Shown here: positions 54,947 to 55,109 of the stretch, piece after piece
Numbering within the stretch: position 1 is the first letter of the stretch
How the letters are laid out: each line of letters opens with the position of its first letter
Origin: Escherichia coli
GTDB taxonomy: Bacteria > Pseudomonadota > Gammaproteobacteria > Enterobacterales > Enterobacteriaceae
Strand: one strand, 5' to 3'
NCBI RefSeq assembly: GCF_024298765.1
Contig: NZ_CP101210.1
Length of the DNA: 64,000 bases
The notes under the pieces: model-generated
What the model saw: only the letters and a program-made list of their open reading frames with translations
What the model was told of the DNA's origin: nothing
Database searches by the model: none
Program-made: the position numbers and the translations under genes

Positions 54947-55109
54947 ATTGAACTCACGCCTGTTAGTTGAAATTTCGCATTTAATTTCATGATTTTTCGG
55001 AGATTAGTCTCAAATCAGAATTTATTTTAGCTAACAGGTGTTCACTGGAACTATTCTCAGTTACGCTGGAGAGGTATACATGTGCGTGTACGTTTCTCCG
55101 GAGTAAGTT

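Follow-up and report, generated by a model that had tools for sequence, protein, structure and literature searches.

The window analysed was a stretch of 64,000 nucleotides of Escherichia coli DNA, in which yqfB is followed on the same strand by yqfA, a gene whose RefSeq name is now trhA. The two are separated by a spacer of 163 bp that carries no annotation. Between 54600 and 55800 the sequence was 100% identical to E. coli FDAARGOS_497 and 97–98% identical to K-12. The features of the locus, in positions of the window, were as follows.

54635–54946, plus strand: coding sequence of yqfB (N4-acetylcytidine amidohydrolase), the upstream neighbour, from its open reading frame and the annotation in RefSeq of E. 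coli records that are identical or nearly so.
54951–54968, no strand assigned: predicted distal FabR-like box, AACTCACGCCTGTTAGTT, from the FabR PWM and cross-genus conservation; it lies 5 bp past the yqfB stop and the left arm begins inside it.
54956–54973, no strand assigned: left arm of a long-range inverted repeat, from a repeat search; conserved, columns 13–30 of alignment A1.
54967–54972, plus strand: TTGAAA on the 3' side of the distal box, with a mean pairwise identity of 0.83; either a flank of the box or a -35-like hexamer.
54982–54994, minus strand: TAA-N5-TGATT, an IHF-like motif with invariant columns, which reads AATCATGAAATTA on the minus strand.
55019–55028, plus strand: A/T tract AATTTATTTT, directly upstream of the proximal box, with a mean pairwise identity of 0.78.
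55024–55041, no strand assigned: right arm of the inverted repeat, from the repeat search; conserved, columns 81–98 of A1.
55029–55046, no strand assigned: proximal FabR operator, AGCTAACAGGTGTTCACT, 18 bp, known and validated; it overlaps the -35 region and the right arm.
55043–55063, plus strand: near-invariant block CACTGGAAyyATTCTCAGTTA, between the proximal box and the -10, with an identity of 0.94.
55062–55067, plus strand: inferred -10 hexamer TACGCT, of the form TAnnnT, where T, A and the final T were invariant in 32 spacers (A1 columns T116, A117 and T121).
55100–55103, plus strand: Shine-Dalgarno sequence GGAG of yqfA/trhA, invariant.
55110–55769, plus strand: coding sequence of yqfA/trhA (PAQR / hemolysin-III family membrane homeostasis protein), the regulated gene, from its open reading frame and RefSeq annotation.

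The first-pass annotation had singled out two 15-mers in the spacer, cctgttagttgaaat and attttagctaacagg, as the arms of an inverted repeat. These were correctly placed, at 54959–54973 and 55024–55038, and were complementary at 13 of 15 positions with a perfect 8-bp core (cctgttag/ctaacagg). The 18-nt arms returned by the repeat search formed 15 of 18 Watson-Crick pairs (83% complementary), and all three mismatches became G-U pairs in RNA of the plus strand. The segment between the arms was AT-rich, as had been noted (27% GC, against 52% for the window), but its length was 50 nt rather than the 55 or so previously given. Inverted repeats of equal quality, defined by 18-nt arms with at least 15 matches and a loop of 3–100, occurred six times, in four clusters, across the 64-kb window, while Markov-1 random sequences contained 3.5 on average. 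An equivalent repeat was found in 0.17% of random 163-mers having the composition of the spacer. The repeat by itself is not exceptional at the scale of the window. Alignment of related genomes had been proposed as a check, and both arms were found to be conserved across genera; it is for this reason that the repeat was considered non-random. A further inverted repeat was seen nearby, where TGAATTTAAATGC (54928–54940) and GCATTTAATTTCA (54977–54989), each of 13 nt and 92% complementary, flanked the yqfB stop codon and the distal box. This is probably a product of chance in AT-rich DNA; its right arm was unconserved beyond Escherichia.

The right arm overlapped the left half of the proximal FabR operator at 55029–55046. 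Established direct targets of FabR are very few, comprising fabA, fabB and yqfA/trhA, and reports on FabR control of the last of these conflict. The FabR box attributed to yqfA/trhA by McCue 2001 and by Feng & Cronan 2011 is said to be the proximal box, and Feng & Cronan 2011 reportedly observed no FabR regulation of yqfA. Positive reports come from three sources. In Salmonella, ChIP and transcriptome data demonstrated FabR binding at the yqfA promoter in vivo, accompanied by repression, and the core FabR motif ACAnnTGTnnnnT was proposed from the ChIP targets (PMC4804515). In a Klebsiella fabR mutant, yqfA was derepressed when measured by RT-qPCR (PMC11481535). Lastly, repression of trhA by FabR on the proximal box has been shown by mutation of that box (PMC9017321). 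There, mutagenic primer CAGAATTTATTTTAGCTAGTGGGTGTTCACTGGAAC converts ACA at 55034–55036 into GTG, which raised trhA expression and removed both the effect of fabR deletion and repression by oleate; the position of the box relative to the trhA start, as mapped by dRNA-seq, also fits the action of a repressor (PMC9017321). The mutated ACA sits inside the core of the right arm, ctaacagg.

Comparison of 80 yqfA loci, taken from one genome per species across Enterobacterales, showed how widely this operator is retained. It was present in 75 of 81 upstream regions (the window and the 80 loci), from Escherichia through to Pectobacterium and Erwinia, and was held within a near-invariant block shared by yqfA loci, TTATTTTAGCtAACAgGTGTtCACTGGAAtCATTCTCAGTTAcgCTA. 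Mean pairwise identity of the proximal box in the 32-spacer alignment was 0.92, and the 40-mer covering it was shared without change by 5392 of 5425 E. coli genomes. A symmetrised PWM was constructed by pooling the fabA and fabB boxes of E. coli with the 32 distinct proximal boxes of orthologous promoters; when applied to the window, it placed the proximal box, which contains ACAGGTGTTCACT, first among 63,983 positions with a score of 25.4 bits. Judged by eye, the box was identical to the E. coli fabA box at 13 of 18 positions and to the fabB box at 12 of 18.

The proximal box was surrounded by other conserved promoter elements. It overlapped the -35 region, TTCACT (55041–46), and the inferred -10 hexamer downstream placed the trhA start at about 55073–55076. 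Relative to that start, the A/T tract immediately upstream of the box occupied positions -55 to -46, approximately, and was conserved as far as Erwinia and Pectobacterium; it is presumably comparable to an UP element. Between box and -10, the block at 55043–55063 was more conserved than the FabR box itself (0.94 versus 0.92) and extended from Escherichia through Pectobacterium and Edaphovirga. Within it lay ACTGGAAT-c-ATTC(t)CAGT, an imperfect palindrome. Such conservation is more than a promoter spacer should show, and an additional role was considered for this reason; FabR contacts may extend into the block, or another factor may bind there. A FadR site was rejected here, as the spacing of the half-sites did not fit when compared by eye with what we take to be the FadR consensus.

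A second box of FabR type was predicted over the left arm. Its core, ACGCCTGTTAGTT (54956–68), is the published ACAnnTGTnnnnT except for a change of A to G at the third position. In E. coli, where ACG replaces ACA and the left half is degenerate, this distal box scored just 3.0 bits with the FabR PWM, ranking ninth of 63,983 positions in the window. It was identical to the fabA box at 12 of 18 positions, a degree of similarity that would be met by chance anywhere in the 163-bp spacer with a probability of about 16% (binomial estimate). At the orthologous position in other genera, scores ranged from 10 to 17 bits, with a top score of 16.9, where the background maximum of the PWM across the 64-kb window was 10.1 bits. 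The highest-scoring examples included Citrobacter gillenii (AGAATACACTTGTTAGCT, 16.9 bits), Yokenella (AGAGAACACCTGTTAGTT, 16.8 bits) and Enterobacter wuhouensis (TGGTAACACGTGTTAGCT, 14.6 bits), while the box in Kluyvera, AAGGTACACGTGTTAGTT, was identical to the E. coli fabA operator at 15 of 18 positions.

When sequence up to 143 nt upstream of the proximal box was searched, a second site of at least 10 bits was recovered from 16 of 74 loci, compared with 0.26 expected from 242,207 background positions; this is an enrichment of roughly 60-fold, in counts that come from phylogenetically related loci and are not independent events. The offsets of these sites clustered at 75–78, and the core ACAnnTGTnnnnT, with either A or G at its third position, was observed at an offset of 75–78 in 33 loci. 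Invariance in the distal box fell on AC, TGT, G and the final T, which are the defining positions of FabR boxes. Within E. coli, the 40-mer over the distal box was identical in 4625 of 5425 genomes. The distal box was also kept in loci that lack yqfB upstream, and it therefore belongs to the control region of yqfA and not to the 3' end of yqfB. In a second group of loci, whose spacers are richer in GC and in which yqfA does not follow yqfB, the box was found at 64–66 bp, about one helical turn closer to the proximal box. An example of this closer spacing is AATGAACAGCTGTAAACT in locus L060, which scored 16.1 bits; the group consists of L016, L037, L042, L053, L054, L059, L060 and L064.

On these alignments, the position of the predicted distal box is conserved across orthologous promoters beyond chance. 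In E. coli itself the predicted site may be weak or vestigial, since its left half has decayed. It is probably an additional operator of a known regulator, perhaps one already described, or tested and dismissed, by Feng & Cronan 2011 or McCue 2001, or entered in RegPrecise or RegulonDB. Three other papers describe a single FabR box at yqfA, and a distal box, its inversion and the fixed spacing are absent from them (PMC9017321, PMC4804515, PMC11481535). Mutation of the proximal box alone ends FabR control in E. coli (PMC9017321), and the distal box would therefore be auxiliary there at most. Furthermore, the reporter used in that study appears to have carried the distal box, in which case the latter cannot repress alone in E. 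coli.

The arrangement of the two boxes was itself conserved. They were separated by 76–78 bp in 31 of 32 aligned spacers, although pairwise identity in the variable DNA between them was only 0.42–0.44, compared with 0.66 for the distal box and 0.92 for the proximal. Distance has been kept while the intervening sequence drifted, and therefore the spacing is under constraint. The orientation of the boxes was evaluated at asymmetric positions, where the distal box fitted the inverted form of the proximal box in 132 of 244 comparisons and the direct form in 42 of 244; the inverted comparison was the better in 36 of 42 loci. By this measure, the predicted distal box repeats the proximal one in inverted orientation. 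The repeat represented a single register of a wider dyad, whose centre lies near 54998.5, and in genera that have an intact distal left half (AGTGAAC...), complementarity spanned the boxes in their entirety. The arms look complementary because a palindromic box resembles its own reverse complement and because the distal box repeats the proximal in the opposite orientation.

We consider with moderate confidence, then, that two FabR-type boxes, the distal one predicted, account for the repeat; they are inverted with respect to each other and 78 bp apart (centres near 54959.5 and 55037.5). An earlier suggestion that the arms might be a pair of regulator binding sites was sound to the extent that each arm falls in its own 18-bp palindromic box of FabR type, but the arms are not half-sites of one site; of the two boxes, the proximal is published and experimentally validated, while the distal is conserved but only predicted. 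FabR, a TetR-family repressor, occupies the proximal box over the -35 region when loaded with unsaturated acyl thioesters and occludes RNA polymerase, and this part of the mechanism is established in published work. Under the favoured reading, the distal box would act as an auxiliary operator for FabR, making repression stronger or tuning it, either by raising local occupancy of FabR or by cooperating with the proximal box across a bendable AT-rich spacer. From the sequence, we infer FabR binding at the distal box and any looping between the two. A conserved second operator would add a layer to the control that unsaturated fatty acids exert over a PAQR-family gene for membrane homeostasis.

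A rather less probable explanation is that the proximal box is the only FabR site, and that the element in the left arm, ACR-nn-TGT-TAG-yTGAAA, serves another regulator whose site has a similar core, or an upstream, -35-like TTGAAA; complementarity of the arms would in that case follow incidentally from an old inverted duplication. The low score of the distal box in E. coli (3 bits) and the loss of FabR control on mutation of the proximal box by itself (PMC9017321) both agree with this. So does the distribution of conservation, given that the TTGAAA flank (0.83) was more conserved than the distal box overall (0.66) and that a further conserved motif, TAA-N5-TGATT, lies 14 bp downstream; FabR explains neither of these. 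However, conservation in the distal box falls on the positions that define a FabR site (AC, TGT and the terminal T), and several genera have near-consensus FabR palindromes at this position. Nor did the hexamer behave like part of a promoter: an upstream promoter with TTGAAA as its -35 was rejected, as most species had no convincing -10 at 15–18 bp and none was consistent across species, while a promoter scan of the spacer was empty.

TAA-N5-TGATT was the sole conserved motif in the AT-rich DNA between the boxes, and lies near their midpoint. On the minus strand, AATCATGAAATTA resembles what we take to be the IHF consensus, WATCAANNNNTTR. At the aligned position, 28 of 32 spacers carried a loose form of the motif (WATCA-N5-TTR) and 8 of 32 matched the strict consensus, the latter including K. 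pneumoniae, K. michiganensis and both Kluyvera. A literature search returned no paper that ties IHF to yqfA. An elaboration of the two-box reading, which we regard as speculative and unlikely, is a dyad-symmetric FabR repressosome with two operators, in which boxes 77 ± 1 bp apart would be arranged around a central IHF-like bend and FabR dimers would loop cooperatively. If true, it would give FabR its first multi-operator architecture, and might explain both the 'complex binding' that has been reported and the conflict among reports of yqfA regulation.

Other box-like elements were observed upstream of the proximal box. Klebsiella, Raoultella, Yokenella, Pluralibacter, Kluyvera and Shimwellia (L015, L020, L021, L027, L029, L038, L041, L062, L063 and L039) share a third, degenerate element, gTTTACAaATATTCAyc, which begins to the left of that box at a distance of about 28 bp and has a low FabR PWM score; nothing like it was found in E. 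coli. Loci of the Erwinia group had TGTTACAGsCGTTCACA about 27 bp upstream of the proximal box.

It is very unlikely that the repeat functions as RNA, that is, with its arms pairing in a yqfB-yqfA read-through transcript so that an 86-nt hairpin (54956–55041) serves as an element of processing, stability or attenuation. The prediction is superficially strong, as the minimum free energy was -28.9 kcal/mol (z = -5.0 against dinucleotide shuffles), every position that was not Watson-Crick was G-U on the plus strand, and RNAalifold recovered 13 of 18 pairs. Read-through is possible given that yqfB has no predicted terminator; an intrinsic terminator was rejected, there being no terminator-like sites in 54500–55300. 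However, covariation was absent when the 32-sequence alignment A1 was compared with versions in which the 3' partners had been shuffled among sequences. The 18-pair helix was paired in 87.8% of cells, compared with 87.4 ± 0.5 in the shuffles, of which 112 out of 500 reached the observed value. The covariation score was 0.096, against 0.094 when shuffled, and the covariation term from alifold was only -0.21 kcal/mol. Changes in the right arm were mostly uncompensated (pair 22/89, for instance, had two compensated changes and five broken), while pairs 16/95 and 17/94 were each broken in 14 of 32 species (44%). These two pairs correspond exactly to the degenerate 'nn' of the FabR core ACAnnTGT, where breaks are predicted by a protein-binding site and not by a hairpin.

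Both arms end by 55041, upstream of the -10 at 55062–55067, and therefore the main trhA transcript contains neither. A search of Rfam with 54000–56500 produced no family, only two miRNA matches at the level of chance (E = 1.3 and 6). The proposal of a structured 5' leader for yqfA was accordingly rejected, on account of the lack of covariation, the position of the arms outside the transcribed leader and the absence of a curated RNA family; folding, which had been recommended as a check, gave a stable structure that was unsupported by compensatory base changes. The low folding energy arises because two inverted copies of an operator yield it automatically. A stable-looking hairpin of 86 nt (z = -5) can therefore come wholly from two copies of a palindromic protein site, and it is covariation that separates the two cases.

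In 69 species, the leader proper (about 55074–55109) showed no conserved excess of stability (median z of +0.3). A second hairpin over the Shine-Dalgarno sequence (55061–55108) was rejected because its outer 5' arm falls at, or upstream of, the inferred start, and because the leaders of these 69 species had no excess stability. What is left in E. coli is a small inner hairpin at the 5' terminus of the leader, GUAUAC / GUGUAC (55074–55093 in the window; 1465–1484 in L004), and in strain SCPM-O-B-8794 a double change, A to T and T to A, preserved a pair of this hairpin and was compensatory within the species. The leader also contains a short open reading frame, ATG TGC GTG TAC GTT TCT CCG GAG TAA (MCVYVSPE), present in this strain and in K-12, which is preceded by GGAGAGG and stops 3 nt short of the trhA ATG. 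It was rejected as a conserved leader peptide (ATG at 55080, TAA ending at 55106), as the start codon is ACG in E. coli E69 and the sequence is unalignable beyond Escherichia.

That the repeat arose by chance in AT-rich intergenic DNA, and signifies nothing beyond the known FabR site, is most improbable. The near-random number of comparable repeats in the window (6 in 4 clusters, against 3.5) is in keeping with such an origin, but the arms and their spacing were conserved in more than 10 genera around DNA of approximately 43% identity, and FabR-like second sites were enriched as described above. A DNA cruciform or a repetitive extragenic element (REP, ERIC or MITE) can scarcely be entertained: inverted symmetry is all that recommends either, cruciform extrusion is disfavoured by an unpaired loop of 50 nt and arms of 15/18, and each of three 40-mers over the region occurred at a single place per genome in 5425 E. 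coli genomes.

The closest comparison for the yqfA promoter is with the other FabR targets of E. coli. The fabA box (AGCGTACACGTGTTAGCT), the fabB box (GGCGTACAAGTGTACGCT) and the yqfA proximal box (AGCTAACAGGTGTTCACT) belong to one family of 18-bp imperfect palindromes that share the core ACAnnTGTnnnnT. At all three genes FabR is the repressor, and repression is enhanced by unsaturated acyl thioesters and oleate. They differ in layout, since the FabR box abuts the -10 at fabA and fabB, beside an activator site for FadR, whereas at yqfA it lies over the -35 and there is no evident FadR site. In addition, yqfA has an inverted second FabR-like box 78 bp upstream, for which fabA has no comparable site. 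At fabB, a match to the core motif, GGGAAACAGGTGTACCCT, was observed 157 bp upstream of the FabR box and inside mnmC (BW25113, L083 about 15287–15304), with a score of 6.2 bits.

With respect to architecture, the models are lac O1/O3, and gal OE/OI with HU, where repression involves auxiliary operators and looping. As those systems are generally described, the yqfA promoter would resemble them in having two operators tens of bp apart for one repressor, of which the primary is necessary and, at yqfA, the distal is predicted. It would also resemble them in a spacing that is conserved despite sequence drift, and in a possible site for an architectural protein between the boxes. Unlike lac and gal, the distal box at yqfA is weak in E. 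coli, and any cooperation by FabR is purely putative; FabR is a TetR-family dimer, and we know of no demonstration that it forms tetramers or loops DNA. Among regulators, the nearest parallel is DesT of Pseudomonas, a FabR-like TetR repressor of desCB and fabAB that senses the saturation of acyl-CoA and binds a similar palindrome. By this description, DesT and FabR are homologous regulators with similar palindromes, which act on different targets in different organisms.
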